The translations under genes and the position numbers were made by a program. 64,000 bases of DNA from Escherichia phage AV118, in sequence record OR352948.1; one strand, 5' to 3'. This document shows positions 18,931 through 52,127 of this stretch, piece after piece; the first letter of the stretch is position 1; the number at the start of each line of letters is the position of its first letter. Under the pieces are notes generated by a model. That model had not been told where the DNA came from. It did no database searches and saw only the letters and a list, made by a program, of their open reading frames with translations.

Positions 18931-19158
18931 TCATTCTATTTCCTTTGCTGCAAATAAGGCAGCATCCAACGAATCAAATTGGTCAACAAAATCAATATTT
19001 AACGCATCGTCAACCGTAGCATATAACCACCATTGTTTGAATTCATATTCAAGAATAAATCCAGGCCCTTCAATCTGAGGAAGACCTAGGCTATTTGTAC
19101 CAACTTCGTAACCAGCTAGACGGAGGTCATTAATCAAAGTTTCTGTTAATACGCTCAT
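18931..19158 (-). CDS. hypothetical protein
   Basis: 75-aa ORF. Confidence 0.45.
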   Translation of the reverse strand: MSVLTETLINDLRLAGYEVGTNSLGLPQIEGPGFILEYEFKQWWLYATVDDALNIDFVDQFDSLDAALFAAKEIE

Positions 19159-19487
19159 TTTACCGCCTTAACAATTTTCAAGTCAACGAATTTTTTCTTA
19201 CGTTGATTTTTCATACGACGGATAGTCTTTTCAGAGATTTCATGTTTCTGATAAGCTTTAGATTCAACACCAAATGCAGCAACGTCAAATTCAGAAAGAA
19301 TATATTGTACTAGAATTTCACGAATAGAATTACGTCCAATTTTCTGGTCGTGTTTTTGCATGATTTCATAAAGACGGAATTCCCACGCGTCAAGAACTTG
19401 AGGAGTAACAATATTGCCGGATTCCAGAAGAGCAACAACTTTATCGAAAGCGAAAGAATTAACTACGTTTTTGATTTTAGTAGACAT
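19155..19487 (-). CDS. hypothetical protein
   Basis: 110 aa from ATG 19487 with SD GAGGAAA; follows duplicated early promoter. Confidence 0.5.
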   Translation of the reverse strand: MSTKIKNVVNSFAFDKVVALLESGNIVTPQVLDAWEFRLYEIMQKHDQKIGRNSIREILVQYILSEFDVAAFGVESKAYQKHEISEKTIRRMKNQRKKKFVDLKIVKAVK

Positions 19488-19524
19488 ATTATTTTCCTCG
19501 GTTATTTTATTATCCAATGAGAGC

Positions 19525-19554
19525 ATTATACTCTGCTCTCAAGAGTTTGTAAAT
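19525..19554 (-). promoter_or_regulatory. sigma70/T4-early-type promoter TTTACA-N17-TATAAT
   Basis: On minus strand: TTTACA, 17-nt spacer, TATAAT; 49-bp element identical to 48178..48226. Confidence 0.6.
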
Positions 19555-19556
19555 CG

Positions 19557-19757
19557 TTATCCGAACTTTTTAGCGCCTTTCCAGCCTTCGTACATAACTG
19601 CACAAGTCAGTAGTACAGCATGCTGGCATTCTTTGTATTTGTAAATCCAGAACCAGCGTAAGAAGTCTTCATCCTCAACGCCGTTGAGTTTCATATTGGC
19701 AAAGAATTCGGCACGTTCTTCACGAAGCTTTTGCGATAACATAGATTCAGGATTCAT
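19557..19757 (-). CDS. hypothetical protein
   Basis: 66-aa ORF. Confidence 0.45.
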   Translation of the reverse strand: MNPESMLSQKLREERAEFFANMKLNGVEDEDFLRWFWIYKYKECQHAVLLTCAVMYEGWKGAKKFG

Positions 19758-21717: not shown

Positions 21718-23531
21718 TGGTGTTTAACCCTATGCATGATTTCTTTATTTTTACCGAGATTAAATCCGCGTTCGTTCGGATTTCCCAAATAACCGCATGT
21801 TCTTCTTATGGTGTTCATCTTTTTAGGATCAGTTTCTCCACAGATAGAACAAACAAATCCGTTTTCAGTAGGAGTCATTTCATGGGTACTTCCACATGTA
21901 AAACATTTATCTACTGGCATATTAACACCAAAATAATCTAAATGTTGTGCAGCATAATCCCACACGGCCTCAAGTCCTTTTAAGTTATTTTTCATATCAG
22001 GAAGTTCAACATAAGAAATGTGACCACCTGTCGCAATGAAATGATATGGCGCTTCACGAGAAATCTTTTCAAACGGAGTAATATTTTCTTCTACTGAAAC
22101 GTGGAAACTGTTAGTGTACCAGCCTTTATCGGTAACATCTTTTACACTTCCATATTTTTCTGTATCGAGTTTACAGAAGCGATAACAAAGGTTTTCAGCA
22201 GGAGTCGAATATAAACTAAAAGCAAATCCAGTTCTTTCGGTCCACTGCTTAAGATGAGCATTCATTTTAGTTAAAATTTCTTGCCCAATATCACGACCGA
22301 CAAGAATATTCAATTCGTGAATACCAATGTATCCTAAAGACACTGAACTTCTACCGTTTTTAAATAACTCAATTATGTCGTCATCAGGTTTAAGACGAAC
22401 CCCGAATGCACCTTCTTGGTAAAGAATAGGAGCTACAGTTGCTTTAACACCCTTTAAAGAACTAATTCTACACATCAAGGCTTCAAAACACAGATCCATT
22501 CGTTCATTGAATAATTCAACAAATTTCTGTTCATTGAACTGTGTTCCAATATAAGAATCTAATGCGATACGAGGAAGATTCAGTGTTACAACGCCGAGAT
22601 TATTACGACCGTCAAGAATTTCATTTCCAGTTGAATCTTTCCATACGCTCAAGAAACTACGGCAACCCATCGGAGAAACTGGAACTGAAGAACCGGTAAT
22701 AGCTTTATTATTCTTAACTGAAATAATGTCAGGATACATTCTTTTGCTTGCACATTCTAACGCAAGTTGTTTAATATCATAGTTTGGATCATCTTTATAA
22801 AGATTAACACCTTCTTCAAAAAACATAACAAGCTTAGGGAAAATAGGAGTTATTCCATCACGTCCAAGGCCTTTAATGCGGTTTTTAAGAATTGCCTTCT
22901 GAATCATTCGTTCAGTCCAGTCAGTTCCTGTACCAAATGTAATTGTTACAAAAGGTGTTTGTCCGTTTGAACTAAAGAGAGTATTTACTTCATATTCATA
23001 AGCTTGGAATGCATCGTATACATCTTTTTCTGTTTTAGATTGAGCATAATTCAACGCATCAGCGATTTGCCATTTTTCTGCATCCTCAATATGTTTTGCA
23101 TAGGTGCGTTTAACATAAGGAGAAAGTACTTTATCTACATTAGCAAAAGTCGTTCCGCCGTATTGATGGGAAGCAACCTGTGCAGTAATTTGTGCCATAA
23201 TTGCAGTAGCAACACCGATTGATTTAGGAGTTTCAATCTGTGCATTACCAAGCTTAAATCCATTCTCAAGCATTCCTTTTAAATCTACTAAACAGCAATT
23301 AGTAAAAGGCAATGATATACTGTAATCTAAATCGTGAAAATGAATTAATCCGACATTATGAGCATTTACAATATGGCTCGGAAGAATACTACAAGCGATA
23401 TGTTTAGAAACAATACCGGCCATTAAATCTCTTTTTGTTGGAAAGACACGAGAATCTTTGTTGGCATTTTCGGTATTTAATTCTTTATCTTTATTTGAAA
23501 TAAAATTTAAAACATCTTTCTCTAAAGACAT
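21714..23531 (-). CDS. nrdD: anaerobic ribonucleoside-triphosphate reductase (class III)
   Basis: 605 aa; C-terminal glycyl-radical motif RRTCGYLG; uninterrupted ORF. Confidence 0.95.
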   Translation of the reverse strand: MSLEKDVLNFISNKDKELNTENANKDSRVFPTKRDLMAGIVSKHIACSILPSHIVNAHNVGLIHFHDLDYSISLPFTNCCLVDLKGMLENGFKLGNAQIETPKSIGVATAIMAQITAQVASHQYGGTTFANVDKVLSPYVKRTYAKHIEDAEKWQIADALNYAQSKTEKDVYDAFQAYEYEVNTLFSSNGQTPFVTITFGTGTDWTERMIQKAILKNRIKGLGRDGITPIFPKLVMFFEEGVNLYKDDPNYDIKQLALECASKRMYPDIISVKNNKAITGSSVPVSPMGCRSFLSVWKDSTGNEILDGRNNLGVVTLNLPRIALDSYIGTQFNEQKFVELFNERMDLCFEALMCRISSLKGVKATVAPILYQEGAFGVRLKPDDDIIELFKNGRSSVSLGYIGIHELNILVGRDIGQEILTKMNAHLKQWTERTGFAFSLYSTPAENLCYRFCKLDTEKYGSVKDVTDKGWYTNSFHVSVEENITPFEKISREAPYHFIATGGHISYVELPDMKNNLKGLEAVWDYAAQHLDYFGVNMPVDKCFTCGSTHEMTPTENGFVCSICGETDPKKMNTIRRTCGYLGNPNERGFNLGKNKEIMHRVKHQ

Positions 23532-24343
23532 AATTCTAATTTATCCTTTTGAAATTCTTCGTCTAAATATGGGTTCCAACCCATTTTAAACCTTTTGATG
23601 AAATTATCAATTCTAAATTTCGGTAAATTTAACTCCGCAAAAATAGATGATTTACTTTTAAAATCTGGACCTAAATAATCATATAAAATTTCTGCGTATT
23701 TTAACCATAATATATAAGTACCAGATTTAATTGCTCTAGGAGTTTTCCAAGGTTTTACGCCGTACATCGGATTTCCACTTCCTTTATGCCTGATAGAAGA
23801 TGAAATTCCAATTTTAATTTTAGCTTCCTTTGTGTGCGAAAATCCATGATGTGGATTTTCTTTCCAGTATTTTTTAGAAGCTTCTGATATTTTCTTTCTG
23901 GCTAAATTAGTATGATGCTTTCCATAAAATCCATGATTTTTACCTTTATTACGATTTCTTTTAATCATGGTTATTGATTGCTTTTCTCTAGTTTCTTTAG
24001 AAGGAGAAACACCGTACGTTGTAAATTGACCATTAGCATATGCTAAATTAAAATACTCTTTATTCCATATATCTTTTTCTATATTCTTTTGAAATTCAGC
24101 TTCAATGCTAGTTATTTGTTCATCTCCGACTAATTGAAAATATAATATTTCAACTTTCGGTGTTTCTTTCAACAGAGCTTTTTGAAATTCGGAAGATGAC
24201 GAAGACGAATAATAAAATTTACCATTTTTATCAATAATATTCGTTCCGTCAAAAGTGCAATTGGTTTTACTTCCAATATAATAATATGGCGGGGTTTTAG
24301 CATTAATTCTACTAATAAATGATAGTTTATATACTACATTCAT
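23522..24343 (-). mobile_element. GIY-YIG homing endonuclease gene (Seg-like), free-standing between gene 49 and nrdD
   Basis: 273 aa; VYKLSF..YYYIGSK; NUMOD3-like GKNHGFYG, GSGNPMYG; paralog of 11818 and 16570 ORFs. Confidence 0.65.
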
Positions 24344-24813
24344 TTTAAACTCTTTCTAAGCTGCTTCTTAAATGAAGCTATTAATTGTGTTTTGGTGTCA
24401 GATTCATTATATTCAAATCCTCTTTGAAGCATCTCGGCCATCATTTCCTCTTTTCCTAAACGAGAAAATTCCTTTGATTTATCTCCAACGAAGTTAGGGT
24501 GAATATTATTTTGGGTGTAATCGGATTTTAAATAAGTAAGTAAATTTTCTAACCATTCAAGATAATCAACGCCTTGTCCCTTTAAACCAGAGCGATTAAA
24601 TTTATGTTTCATTTGACCTTCTGCAGCATTGCAGAGATTACAAAGCAATCCACGTACCTTTCCTGCTTTTGGTCCATTTAATTCATGGTCATGATCGAGG
24701 TGATTAGCTTGAACATCAGGATTTAGTTCTCGTTGGCAAATTAAGCATTTACCGTTTTGTGCATCATAAAATTTCTGTTTTTCTTCTTTATATAATTTGC
24801 CAGTCAATAACAT
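24340..24813 (-). CDS. 49: endonuclease VII (Holliday junction resolvase)
   Basis: 157 aa; Zn-binding CLICQ...HLDHDH...CNLCN; sequence matches T4 gp49. Confidence 0.95.
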   Translation of the reverse strand: MLLTGKLYKEEKQKFYDAQNGKCLICQRELNPDVQANHLDHDHELNGPKAGKVRGLLCNLCNAAEGQMKHKFNRSGLKGQGVDYLEWLENLLTYLKSDYTQNNIHPNFVGDKSKEFSRLGKEEMMAEMLQRGFEYNESDTKTQLIASFKKQLRKSLK

Positions 24814-28054: not shown

Positions 28055-28083
28055 GATTATACTCCAACCATCCTTGGTTGTAC
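28055..28083 (-). promoter_or_regulatory. sigma70/T4-early-type promoter TGTACA-N17-TATAAT
   Basis: Hexamers and 17-nt spacer read on minus strand; spacer contains small inverted repeat. Confidence 0.5.
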
Positions 28084-28084
28084 A

Positions 28085-29670: not shown

Positions 29671-29697
29671 GTTTTACCTCCAGTAGTTGATAGGTCT

Positions 29698-29726
29698 ATA
29701 ATAACATAACCATAGACCTTGTAAAC
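29698..29726 (-). promoter_or_regulatory. T4-early-type promoter GTTTAC-N17-TATTAT in palindromic element
   Basis: Member of repeated GATAGGTCTAT...ATAGACC family. Confidence 0.5.
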
Positions 29727-33710: not shown

Positions 33711-33845
33711 TTTACCATACTCGTTTCAATAAGATTCACTATGCCGTTTACCATGTTATAAGTAAACATCGGATAATTGTATTGTATCACAACGTATACG
33801 ATAAGCAAAAGTTTCATTTTGTTCTCCATTTGTTTTGATAGGACT

Positions 33846-33874
33846 ACTATAACATAGTCCTATCAAGATGTAAA
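33846..33874 (-). promoter_or_regulatory. T4-early-type promoter TTTACA-N17-TATAGT inside inverted repeat GATAGGACTA/TAGTCCTATC
   Basis: Palindromic promoter-family element. Confidence 0.5.
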
Positions 33875-34324: not shown

Positions 34325-34333
34325 TGATAGATG

Positions 34334-34363
34334 CCAAAAAGCCCCGACCTTTCGGAAGGGGCT
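34334..34363 (-). terminator. intrinsic terminator hairpin + U-run
   Basis: AGCCCC...GGGGCT stem with GAAA-type loop followed by T5 on minus strand; 34-bp element identical to 49455..49488. Confidence 0.55.
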
Positions 34364-34369
34364 AGTAAA

Positions 34370-44063: not shown

Positions 44064-44091
44064 AATATTCTCCTCATGTTTTAATAGGACT

Positions 44092-44121
44092 ACTATAACA
44101 TAATCCTATAATTATGTAAAC
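44092..44121 (-). promoter_or_regulatory. T4-early-type promoter in palindromic element
   Basis: GTTTAC + TATAGT inside GATAGGACTA-type inverted repeat. Confidence 0.45.
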
Positions 44122-45367: not shown

Positions 45368-45383
45368 TTAATTTGATAGGACT

Positions 45384-45413
45384 ACTATAACATAGCCCTA
45401 TCTTGTTGTAAAC
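45384..45413 (-). promoter_or_regulatory. T4-early-type promoter in palindromic element
   Basis: GTTTAC + TATAGT inside GATAGGACTA-type inverted repeat. Confidence 0.45.
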
Positions 45414-46212: not shown

Positions 46213-46568
46213 TTTCTACATTCCTTAATAAAGTTTTCGATTGTTTCATTTTCACGTCTAGCTAGGAGTTCATTATAACTAATCATTTGAGAAGCGTAAA
46301 TCTTTTTATTTTTCTTGTTATGGTAAATAAAGTCATAGTAAAAATAGACTACAGTACAAAATGATGCGATGGATGCAAAGGCTTGGGTATACCGTAAGTC
46401 CTGCCATTGGTCTGTGAATCCGCCAGTGTTCCCTATAAATCCTAACACAACGCCGTCAATAAGAAATCCAACTAATCCAAAGGCAAATCCCATGCCAATA
46501 CTCATAATAAAAATTAGAATGTTCTCACCAAGAGAAGGCCATACGGTTAAGAGTTGAGGCTTTTGCAT
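46209..46568 (-). CDS. membrane protein with C-terminal ENFIKECR motif (FIKECR family)
   Basis: 119 aa; hydrophobic N-terminal half; C-terminus ...IENFIKECRK. Confidence 0.6.
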   Translation of the reverse strand: MQKPQLLTVWPSLGENILIFIMSIGMGFAFGLVGFLIDGVVLGFIGNTGGFTDQWQDLRYTQAFASIASFCTVVYFYYDFIYHNKKNKKIYASQMISYNELLARRENETIENFIKECRK

Positions 46569-46909: not shown

Positions 46910-47533
46910 TTAATTGGCATGTACAGGGTTGGCTTTGACATATTCTCTACATTCCATAATAAATTGCTCAAGGATTAAATTGTTAGTGAAATTAGGACTA
47001 ACAACCATAGTTTCATAAAGCGCATCAATAGCACTTAAAGCATCAACTCTTTTAAGCAAAGGCTTGCCTTCATACATAGTTTCAGAATCGACGATTAAAG
47101 TGAAGTAGTATTTTTTATTATCGACTAGAACTTCTGTATCGATATAAAACATATTAGACCTCAGAAGCTTATCTCTAAAACCATAATAATCTTTAGAGCG
47201 TTCGCTGATATATTCCCATTCAGTGTTTAAACAACAAACAGACCATGTAGGAGCAACGAAATCGGTGAATCTAATATCATGGTCTGCAACTAGTTTAGCA
47301 ATAGCTCCGATATCATGAATCATAATACCTGGGGCTAATAAAGATTTTCTGCTATGGCTAGCCGTTTTCTCAGTAGTCTCATAAGAAGACGACCAGTACC
47401 ATTTACGTCCAGTTGCAACATATCGTAATGAATCAACTAAAGACGTAGGTGGATTTACCTTATCTCGGAACTCTTCGAACATTGAGTCAATATCATTATT
47501 TTGGTTTCGCATGTTAACTCCTTTATTATCCAA
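46910..47533 (-). CDS. hypothetical protein carrying EQFIMECR motif near C-terminus
   Basis: 207-aa ORF, not obviously membrane-embedded. Confidence 0.55.
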   Translation of the reverse strand: MDNKGVNMRNQNNDIDSMFEEFRDKVNPPTSLVDSLRYVATGRKWYWSSSYETTEKTASHSRKSLLAPGIMIHDIGAIAKLVADHDIRFTDFVAPTWSVCCLNTEWEYISERSKDYYGFRDKLLRSNMFYIDTEVLVDNKKYYFTLIVDSETMYEGKPLLKRVDALSAIDALYETMVVSPNFTNNLILEQFIMECREYVKANPVHAN

Positions 47534-47554
47534 AAGGAGGACCGGAGTCCTCCG
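47531..47554 (-). terminator. intrinsic terminator hairpin + U-run
   Basis: GGAGGAC-CGGA-GTCCTCC followed by T4 on minus strand. Confidence 0.5.
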
Positions 47555-47561
47555 TATTATT

Positions 47562-48155
47562 TTATTTCAAAGAGTTAATATATTCTTGTACATCAGCAGA
47601 AGTGGTTTCGACACCAGCTGGAGTGCCATTGAACGTTTCAACACGAGTCAGAGTGTCTTCGATATCAACCTTAGTCAGTGCAGCGATTTCAATTACATCA
47701 TCGGCCGTAGAGATACCAAGGGCATTAGCTGCTCGAGTTTCACGAATGTATTCGAGTTTGATTGCCAGATTCTGACGAGCATCATCAAGTTCAACCACCT
47801 TACGAGCAATTTCAATTCGCATAGCGGCATACCCGTCAGCTTTTGTATTAAGTTGTTCGGCAGTTCGACGATACAGAAGACCAAGCTTAGCATGCATGGT
47901 AACATCTTGTCCTTCAGCCAAGAGCTTACGAATTTCACGTTCCTTAGAAGCGGCTTGCTTGTTCTTTTCATTAACAAGTTCGCGAATACGTTTTTCTTCA
48001 TTAATAGATTTAACAGAAGCCGTTTTTAGTTCTTTGATTTGGGTAATCAACTTATCTGCAGCTGCGTTATACTGTTCTTCGACAGTCAGATTTTTAGCCA
48101 TAGCAGTACCCAGTTTAGTGCGGATGAATTCAACAAGTTTTTTCAGTGTGTTCAT
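47562..48155 (-). CDS. coiled-coil protein (weak PspA/IM30-like resemblance)
   Basis: 197 aa from ATG 48155; long heptad-rich helices; follows duplicated early promoter. Confidence 0.5.
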
Positions 48156-48196
48156 ATTATTACCTTTCAATTGGTGGTTTATTATCCAATGAGAGC

Positions 48197-48226
48197 ATTA
48201 TACTCTGCTCTCAAGAGTTTGTAAAT
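48197..48226 (-). promoter_or_regulatory. sigma70/T4-early-type promoter TTTACA-N17-TATAAT
   Basis: 49-bp element identical to 19506..19554. Confidence 0.6.
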
Positions 48227-48453
48227 TATTTTTTAATCAAATTGACATAAAACTCGGCGTCTTCCGGGTGCATGCCTTCACAGTATTCTTCAACCATGAA
48301 CTTCTTAACGGCTTCATAAGGACCACTCAGATTAAGCTCAGTTGTCCAGAACTTGGAATCTTGGACTGAATCGATACGAACTTCAGGGTGACGGTTGCGA
48401 ATAACTTCTTCAGTGTATTCATAATCAACGACATCAATACTAACTGTAGCCAT
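48226..48453 (-). CDS. hypothetical acidic protein
   Basis: 75-aa ORF. Confidence 0.5.
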   Translation of the reverse strand: MATVSIDVVDYEYTEEVIRNRHPEVRIDSVQDSKFWTTELNLSGPYEAVKKFMVEEYCEGMHPEDAEFYVNLIKK

Positions 48454-48883: not shown

Positions 48884-48949
48884 ATCTTTATGAAATATTT
48901 TTATGCCCTAGATACCAAAAGGCCCCAACCATAAGGAAGGGGCATTCTA

Positions 48950-49414: not shown

Positions 49415-49457
49415 GTTGCTTTTCCTAAGTTAATTAACTTATCTATTTATTATTATG

Positions 49458-49487
49458 CCAAAAAGCCCCGACCTTTCGGAAGGGGCT
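49458..49487 (-). terminator. intrinsic terminator hairpin + U-run
   Basis: Same 34-bp sequence as at 34331..34364. Confidence 0.55.
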
Positions 49488-49798
49488 AAGCCTTGCGGCA
49501 ACCTTGTCGGGGTTCCACCTGCTAAGGCAAGTGTTTGTACGAAACGCCGGGATTCGAACCCGGTTATTAAGCAGTTGACGCTACTCAATATTTTTAAAAG
49601 GCCATATCTCGACCATATCCGAACGTTCCGTCAAAAACGCTACTCGGCTTACGGCAAAGATATTTCCTCGAATCGATAATTCGGTGCGCCGTTTCTGCTG
49701 TGATATAAGGGGGCATTAACAAAACATAAAGATTTATTAATGCCAGTCCTTACTCAGGGAACATCAGTCCGACGACTTACCGGTAGCGACCCGGCTTC

Positions 49799-51679: not shown

Positions 51680-51711
51680 TTTAGGTTCCATTTGGTTGTT
51701 TTGATAGGACT

Positions 51712-51741
51712 ACTATAACATAGTCCTATCGTGTTGTAAAT
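51712..51741 (-). promoter_or_regulatory. T4-early-type promoter-like palindromic element
   Basis: GATAGGACTA/TAGTCCTATC inverted repeat with TATAGT and ATTTAC. Confidence 0.4.
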
Positions 51742-52052: not shown

Positions 52053-52097
52053 TTTATTTCCTTGAGGTTGTTTATTTGATAGGATGATAGTAACACA

Positions 52098-52127
52098 CCA
52101 TCATCCTTATGTAAACTGTTTTGTGAA
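52098..52127 (-). promoter_or_regulatory. T4-early-type promoter (GTTTAC + TACTAT)
   Basis: Palindromic promoter-family element. Confidence 0.45.

Follow-up and report, generated by a model that had tools for sequence, protein, structure and literature searches.

A promoter/stem-loop cassette, probably of the PeSL type, present in two exact copies in an RB69-like phage

A 49-bp sequence is present in two exact copies, 28.7 kb apart, in a 64,000-nucleotide stretch of the genome of Escherichia phage AV118 (sequence record OR352948.1), referred to here as the window. Both copies lie between genes and carry a promoter whose -10 box sits within an inverted repeat. This raises the question of what kind of element is repeated, why its copies are identical and whether the phage genome is rearranged between them. 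In the PeSLs described in phages RB49 and phi1, a stop codon, an AT-rich region, -35 and -10 boxes, a stem-loop, a Shine-Dalgarno sequence (SD) and an ATG are laid out together (Arbiol et al., 2010, PMC2839356). Taking our explanation as a whole, we consider it probable that both copies are PeSL-type cassettes, of the subclass in which the stem-loop overlaps the -10 box.

Anatomy and setting of the two copies

The window belongs to an RB69-like (Mosigvirus) T4-type coliphage, and its best match is phage AV115, with 99.6% identity. The 49-mer, TTTATTATCCAATGAGAGCATTATACTCTGCTCTCAAGAGTTTGTAAAT, occurs exactly at two places, L1 and L2 (Table 1). The window holds no further match at up to three mismatches, and none is expected from 100 shuffles; repeat finding recovered the 49-mer as family D13. 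Read on the minus strand, it is A-TTTACA-N17-TATAAT-GCTCTCATTGGATAATAAA, which resolves in order into A, TTTACA, AACTCT, TGAGAGCA, GAGTATAA, TGCTCTCA and TTGGATAATAAA. The -35 and -10 hexamers of both copies match the consensus at 11 of 12 positions. The arms TGAGAGCA and TGCTCTCA form a perfect 8-bp inverted repeat, with G-C at 4 of the 8 pairs, around the 8-nt loop GAGTATAA. The 3' arm opens with the last T of the -10 box, which otherwise lies in the loop, and the arm extends from this T to about +1, an end point that we infer from the spacing rules of sigma-70 promoters. The hairpin is the dominant RNA fold of the 49-mer (-13.8 kcal/mol, z = -3.6), and none of 200 shuffled sequences was equally stable.

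Table 1. Features of the two copies, the neighbouring genes, related cassettes in the window and alleles in relatives
Feature	Coordinates	Strand	Remarks
Copy 1 (L1)	19506..19554	minus	between 55.3 and 55.2
L1 promoter boxes	-35 19553-19548; -10 19530-19525	minus	TTTACA; TATAAT
L1 hairpin	5' arm 19541-19534; loop 19533-19526; 3' arm 19525-19518	minus	arms TGAGAGCA, TGCTCTCA
L1 start site and tail	start 19518; tail 19517-19506	minus	inferred start A; tail TTGGATAATAAA
Copy 2 (L2)	48178..48226	minus	between frd.3 and e.6
L2 promoter boxes	-35 48225-48220; -10 48202-48197	minus	
L2 hairpin	5' arm 48213-48206; 3' arm 48197-48190	minus	
L2 start site and tail	start 48190; tail 48189-48178	minus	inferred start
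55.3 homologue (DUF5490)	19557..19757	minus	upstream of L1; stop codon 2 nt from L1
55.2 homologue (DUF7570, phrog_1475)	19155..19487	minus	downstream of L1; SD GAGG, ATG 19487
frd.3 homologue (PF05798)	48226..48453	minus	upstream of L2
e.6 homologue (phrog_1203)	47562..48155	minus	downstream of L2; SD AAGG, ATG 48155
e.6/e.5 terminator-like hairpin	47522..47553 (hairpin 47536-47553)	minus	GGAGGACTCCGGTCCTCC, then TTTTGGATAATAAA
Major-class cassette	33833..33874	minus	GTTTACA...GATAGGACTA-tgttatag-TAGTCCTATC; same register as 49-mer
Major-class cassette	44084..44120	minus	
Major-class cassette	45375..45412	minus	G·T wobble in stem
Major-class cassette	51703..51740	minus	
Cassette with different stem	52081..52115	minus	AGGATGATGG.../...CTATCATCCT
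Cassette with further stem	29692..29725	minus	AGGTCTAT/ATAGACCT
Arms, window L1 and L2			TGAGAGCA / TGCTCTCA
Arms, RB69 L1			CGAGAGAT / TTCTCTCG
Arms, FP43 L1			TGAGAGAT / TTCTCTCG
Arms, APCEc01 L1			TGAGAGCA / TTCTCTCG
Arms, phiC120 L1, F2 L1, RB69 L2			TGAGAGCA / TGCTCTCG

The genes around both copies are all encoded on the minus strand, and the layout is the same at each copy: a stop codon, the -35 box, the hairpin around the -10 box, an SD and an ATG, on one strand throughout. The TAA stop of frd.3 (48228-48226) overlaps the first base of L2. Directly upstream of L2 lies TTAAAAAATAA; L1 follows straight on the last coding bases of 55.3 (GTTCGGATAACG), and the one AAAAA there is distal. Both downstream genes, 55.2 and e.6, are assigned to PHROGs of unknown function. 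Regarding frd.3, its homologue stands beside e.6 in the window, the place that e.7 takes in T4; the frd.3 of T4 is found in the frd-32 region. The gene immediately upstream of L2 has been relocated between genera.

These results bear on most of what the original prediction had said about the repeat. The exact 49-bp duplication is confirmed (two exact matches, 0 in 100 shuffles), and the sequence of the TTTACA-N17-TATAAT promoter claimed on the minus strand is borne out as a T4-type early promoter consensus. The two downstream genes had been called unrelated; a protein comparison of 55.2 (DUF7570) and e.6 agrees, with no detectable similarity. The predicted arms GAGAGCA/TGCTCTC also exist, but they pair over 8 bp rather than 7, and they do not strictly flank the -10 box, which takes up loop bases and one base of the 3' arm, its first.

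The position of L1 also affects the annotation of 55.2. The longest open reading frame starts at ATG 19526, inside the -10 box and 3' arm (TATAATGCTC), and adds the stretch 19488-19526 on the minus strand. This start is annotated in AV115, mogra and F2 as a CDS of 372 nt, and the downstream ATG (19487) is annotated in RB69 and PTE-Eco05. ATG 19487, preceded by GAGGAAAATAAT, is likely to be the true start, and the long form probably reflects misannotation, because local transcripts would start downstream of ATG 19526. Since the stop codon of 55.3 lies just upstream of L1, read-through transcripts from 55.3 would carry the complete hairpin. A further read-through fold at L1, pairing UUCGG in the 3' end of 55.3 with CCGAG in the SD region of 55.2, was set aside as a probable chance pairing; its upstream partner is missing in the relatives that contain RB69ORF075c.

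Stem-loops in a fixed register at the -10 box

On the minus strand of the window there are at least eight strong promoter/hairpin sites, mostly between 29 and 52 kb, and at least six promoters other than L1 and L2 carry an unrelated stem in the register of the 49-mer. To quantify the register, we used the N17 promoter-like sequences of all Mosigvirus loci retrieved, 112 distinct ones in total, picked solely by their -35 and -10 boxes. In 24 of the 112, at least 7 of 8 positions pair in a single register, with an 8-nt loop and the 3' arm starting from the last T of the -10 box; registers off this axis are each found in at most three sequences. An identical geometry is therefore occupied by different stem sequences. 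The early promoters of RB69 are C-rich from -3 to -1 (Nolan et al., 2006, PMC1524935), and the arm ends GCTCTC-A and AGTCCT-A fit this feature. Thus the duplication first noticed is real, but the impression that it is isolated is not upheld: the 49-mer is one class in a large promoter/stem-loop family, with a third copy in many relatives.

The stems vary between orthologous sites in a manner that preserves pairing (Table 1). Relative to the window, L1 of RB69 shows a T-A to C-G and a C-G to A-T change, both with pairing kept. We aligned 21 distinct cassettes, a set whose rows were preselected for pairing and are in many cases related; 85% of the cells are paired, compared with 34-47% after a shift of the partner by 1-3 columns. 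Changes on both sides occur in 8 of the 10 pairs, and the covariation score of these cassettes is 0.48, against 0.23 when shuffled. Among the inner eight pairs, the cells that are not Watson-Crick comprise 10 G·T or T·G and no A·C or C·A, which argues for pairing on the sense strand in single-stranded form (RNA or non-template DNA), and not for a symmetric duplex protein site. Together, the compensatory changes and the sense-strand wobbles in these sequences point to a selected single-strand hairpin. The L1 allele of APCEc01 (locus L012, 32048-32096) joins an L2-type 5' arm to a 3' arm of the RB69 L1 type and has a C·T mismatch; it may be either a loop crossover or an intermediate on a path of compensatory mutation. 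We rejected it as proof of a loop crossover, because a single-mutation intermediate explains it equally.

Our comparative work was based on GenBank phages. At 90% identity or more, the 49-mer is found at 351 places in 160 records, up to three per record, and the carriers are all RB69-like coliphages or Shigella phages; the 36-nt core had no match among the viral contigs of IMG/VR. The element is entered as a host-type promoter in some GenBank records (ATK47/48), and one copy in SA35RD as a terminator. In PTE-Eco05, the third copy is a 35-nt identical core in the variable region beyond rIIB, before a 148-aa open reading frame, outside the part that corresponds to the window. L1 and L2 are exactly identical in the window, PTE-Eco05 and mogra, and the boundaries of identity are sharp. 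We also considered the tail as an indicator of whether sequence passed from L1 to L2 or from L2 to L1, and abandoned this: TTGGATAATAAA is ancestral at L1, as T4 has it, yet a similar sequence is present in the e.6 leader and at the e.6/e.5 junction.

As to termination, a consensus terminator scan of both copies did not call the hairpin of the 49-mer, whereas it did call terminator-like hairpins at 47536-47553 and 49466-49481. The tail that follows the stem, UUGGAUAAUAAA, has only two U and no U-run. Since the U-run is absent and the scan makes no call, the hairpin is not predicted to be a canonical intrinsic terminator. A search of Rfam 15 at E <= 1 over 19350-19700, on both strands, gave no match. 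On the window's minus strand, each occurrence of the 11-mer TGGATAATAAA comes directly behind a hairpin, and there are three of these, namely those of L1, L2 and the e.6/e.5 terminator-like site, so that e.6 is bracketed on both sides by a hairpin plus TGGATAATAAA. This tail also follows the 55.3 hairpin of T4 (T4 locus L009, about 512-522). This confinement of TGGATAATAAA, and the tail shared with T4, support a view of the element as composite, with the hairpin and tail as its terminator-side half. The tail itself is a candidate termination tail, processing site or cassette scar. A second exact repeat in the window, of 34 nt (34331-34364 and 49455-49488, with a 76% match at 48912-48945), holds a GC-rich terminator-like hairpin, GCCCCGACCTTTCGGAAGGGGC, and in PTE-Eco05 a 594-nt insertion is bounded by the 34-nt repeat at 34335-34363.

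These data also bear on readings in which the hairpin has another role or none. That assembly or sequencing duplicated the segment, the objection raised together with the original prediction, has a practically negligible probability. It is ruled out by the same exact pair in the independently sequenced PTE-Eco05 and mogra and by copy 1 in AV115; moreover, the element stands at the same two loci in independent genomes (PTE-Eco05, mogra, RB69, APCEc01, phiC120 and AV115), it has 351 places in 160 records, and the flanking genes are distinct and conserved. The exact identity of L1 and L2 in three genomes, with its sharp boundaries, would also suit a recent promoter duplication or gene conversion in which the inverted repeat is a passenger and the hairpin has no function. 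We hold this to be highly improbable: the element is old and widespread, in about 160 records, its orthologous alleles differ by changes that keep the stem, unrelated stems occupy the same register in many other promoters, and the site in T4 that is orthologous to L1 holds another hairpin, with the same tail behind it. A protein might instead recognize the inverted repeat as double-stranded DNA, a dimeric phage or host factor binding the palindrome on the -10 box and repressing or timing a subset of early promoters. Such an operator would suit the fixed position of the dyad axis on the -10 box in many promoters, and sequence-specific recognition could explain why the major class keeps nearly the same arms, TAGGACTA/TAGTCCTA, at many non-orthologous sites. 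However, at least four unrelated arm sequences (GAGAGCA, TAGGACTA, AGGTCTAT and AGGATGATGG) share one register in one genome, the arms change by compensation, and the mismatches are only sense-strand G·T and never A·C, a bias not favoured by symmetric duplex sites. The analysis brought up no candidate repressor, and we regard the operator as quite improbable.

Indels and recombination at the cassettes

The clearest case of a gene-content difference at L1 concerns RB69ORF075c (phrog_11314), which lies between 55.3 and 55.2, flanked by two cassettes, in RB69, FP43, APCEc01, phiC120 and F2. It is present in about 99 records and absent from roughly 60 element-bearing records, the window among them. 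Relative to the window, the breakpoint falls at 19547-19551, within the -35 box of L1. This box is TATACA or TGTACA in all five genomes that contain ORF075c, and TTTACA in five without it (window, AV115, PTE-Eco05, mogra and PhAPEC2); in the three of the latter in which both loci were read (window, PTE-Eco05 and mogra), L1 is identical to L2. A broader rule, that L1 equals L2 only where ORF075c is absent, was rejected; it holds for the TTTACA box (five versus five genomes) but fails for the hairpin allele, as an L2-type stem coexists with ORF075c in phiC120 and F2. The junction without ORF075c, TAACGATTTACAA, is not a simple recombination product of the sampled flanking cassettes TAATAATGTACAA and AATAGTATACAA. 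The event may therefore have been either an insertion or a deletion. The cassette upstream of ORF075c, with arms GATAGGAAGA/TCTTCCTATC, has the loop TAATAACATTCG in F2 and CATGTTATTA in FP43. Between F2 (L014, 318-352) and FP43 (L007, around 2690-2730), nine loop nucleotides are reverse-complemented, and the loop that bears the -10 box appears inverted between the arms.

When the window is compared with four relatives, promoter cassettes coincide with 8 of the 37 edges of indels, where 2.15 would be expected (P about 0.0002), an enrichment that arises partly because cassettes and indel edges are both intergenic. Indels at -35 boxes elsewhere are found at 28056-28084 (minus), 44115-44121 and 46300. 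At 28056-28082, mogra, APCEc01 and phiC120 have an insertion of 969-993 nt with a duplicated promoter of 27 nt on its flanks; in APCEc01, 262 nt are inserted exactly at the -35 box of the 44084..44120 cassette; and at 46300 a 251-nt segment is restricted to the lineage of the window.

The repeats had been proposed as substrates for recombination and deletion, with a search of related genomes for rearrangement between the copies as the check. The first part stands, in that T4-type phages recombine at short repeats of this kind (Arbiol et al., 2010, PMC2839356) and a cassette-bounded indel is found at the -35 box of L1. The second part has no counterpart in the relatives: none of 162 related records has 80% or more of either synthetic chimeric junction, frd.3-element-55.2 or 55.3-element-e.6, so no junction of an L1-L2 deletion or duplication was detected among them. 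In six genomes the two copies are collinear and 28.6-30.5 kb apart. The interval between L1 and L2 contains gene 49 (24340-24813), nrdD/nrdG, tk, regB, denV and the lysozyme gene e. T4 needs gene 49 for packaging and gene e for lysis. A deletion between L1 and L2 is thus probably lethal, because the interval holds both genes. Within the same interval, a 273-aa homing-endonuclease-like open reading frame (phrog_7504) lies between gene 49 and nrdD (23522-24343, minus); the 866-nt segment with this frame is missing from PTE-Eco05, mogra, APCEc01 and phiC120. In PTE-Eco05, conversely, nrdD and nrdG are separated by a homing-endonuclease insertion of 844 nt (window position about 21717). No Rfam intron match was found.

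The breakpoints invite the reading that the hairpin is primarily a DNA-level recombination signal, in which a hairpin or cruciform arising in single-stranded or supercoiled DNA is a target of a nuclease or recombinase or a site of template switching, with gene shuffling as the main function and transcription secondary. Arbiol et al. (2010, PMC2839356) placed one mini-circle crossover in the loop of a stem-loop and speculated on a specific protein. In our data, several indels break exactly at cassettes, and in the cassette upstream of ORF075c the loops of F2 and FP43 are reverse complements of each other (TAATAACAT versus CATGTTATTA), as would result from template switching or inversion between the arms. 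Nevertheless, at L1, 44120 and 46300 it is the -35 box that contains the breakpoint and not the hairpin, general T4-type homologous recombination on short homology suffices, and a fixed register relative to the -10 box and +1 is hard to explain by recombination alone. We therefore consider a primary recombination signal unlikely. The duplex operator, the DNA recombination signal and the passenger palindrome are all less well supported than the PeSL-type reading.

Proposed role and comparison with known systems

In a PeSL-type cassette, the two boxes would act as a host sigma-70 or T4-early-type promoter, with transcription starting at about 19518 and 48190, at the A that ends the 3' arm. Genes 55.2 and e.6 would each receive their own early transcript, free of the hairpin. 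Polymerase arriving from 55.3 or frd.3 would transcribe the whole inverted repeat; therefore, only read-through RNA would fold the 8-bp hairpin followed by the A/U-rich tail UUGGAUAAUAAA. The hairpin would most likely attenuate read-through and/or form a stable 3' end, insulating the downstream gene, a role assigned by analogy with a GC-rich RB49 stem-loop for which it was shown experimentally. For the present phage, we infer promoter activity, start site and terminator activity from the sequence. Comparative data support a further role: the cassette, of roughly 35-62 nt at two or three sites per genome, offers short homology for the recombination system of the phage, and the identity of the copies may come from a shared origin plus selection and/or gene conversion. 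Such short shared homology would explain both the exact identity of the copies and the cassette-bounded indel of RB69ORF075c at the L1 -35 box. A crossover between L1 and L2 would not be seen in viable phages, because 28.7 kb with essential genes would be lost.

The register is strictly fixed, with the dyad centred on the first bases of the -10 box, and the tail UUGGAUAAUAAA is conserved at three sites. A more specific proposal is that this geometry marks a dedicated device and not a generic terminator, by which read-through and local mRNAs would be treated differently in 3'-end formation, decay or tail processing; the hairpins might also form in replicating DNA and drive template switches, such as the F2 loop inversion and the homogenization of the copies. 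We regard this extension of the PeSL-type reading as unlikely.

For the PeSL-type cassette itself, the analysis extends the concept to the large RB69-like genus Mosigvirus, and its support is cleaner than position alone would give, comprising the fixed register, the compensation, the sense-strand wobbles and an indel of an open reading frame that breaks inside a -35 box. In these therapeutic-candidate phages, exact short repeats of this kind are regulatory cassettes, not assembly errors. The cassette also explains the mis-annotation of the 55.2 start codon that is common in records, and cassettes mark likely places of gene-content differences between Mosigvirus isolates.

We compared the window cassettes with three known systems. 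In the published PeSLs, the stem-loop falls into five positional subclasses, most often in the interval that separates the -35 and -10 boxes or in overlap with the -10 box, and promoter activity, terminator-like activity of one RB49 stem-loop, cassette-bounded indels and mini-circles have been reported (Arbiol et al., 2010, PMC2839356). Comeau et al. (2014, PMC4122927) extended PeSLs to T4/PST and KVP40/nt-1 and proposed that they are general; RB69-like phages lay outside the analyses of both papers. Like PeSLs, the window cassettes are intergenic and have sigma-70-like boxes and a stem-loop overlapping the -10 box, followed by an SD and an ATG. They are also present in many copies in hyperplastic regions of small open reading frames, bound indels between close relatives and tolerate G·T pairs. 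Unlike the published PeSLs, the window stem is A/G-rich (GAGAGCA) and not GGGG/CCCC, it lacks a U-run, and its register is very uniform, with an 8-nt loop and a 3' arm from the last -10 base to about +1.

Regarding RB69, Nolan et al. (2006, PMC1524935, Additional file 3) predicted the early promoters Pe:72069 (25.3 bits), Pe:42515 (8.9 bits) and Pe:42816; hairpins or repeats are not mentioned in that paper. These are the sites orthologous to L2, L1 and the cassette upstream of ORF075c, respectively. The RB69 predicted promoters share the T4-type GTTTAC/TAtAAT consensus and the C-rich -3 to -1 with the window copies; however, the -35 box of RB69 L1 is weak (TATACA, HMM score 8.9), whereas that of window L1 is the consensus TTTACA, identical to L2.

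Lastly, the 55.3/55.2 junction of T4 has a hairpin (AAGGGCUUCGGCCUUU plus UUGGAUAAUAAAAU) at the orthologous position, followed by the same tail, UUGGAUAAUAAA(AU). It is a UUCG-tetraloop hairpin with a U-run, and together with the tail it reads AAGGGCTTCGGCCTTT-TTGGATAATAAAAT; a promoter is absent from this junction in T4. This T4 hairpin is of the terminator type without an embedded promoter, whereas the window hairpin has the -10 box in its loop and no U-run; at the e.8/e.7 junction, T4 does have a promoter with its -10 box inside a hairpin loop. In summary, the comparison reveals no new kind of system: the cassette is an ordinary member of the PeSL class, not a new kind of element.
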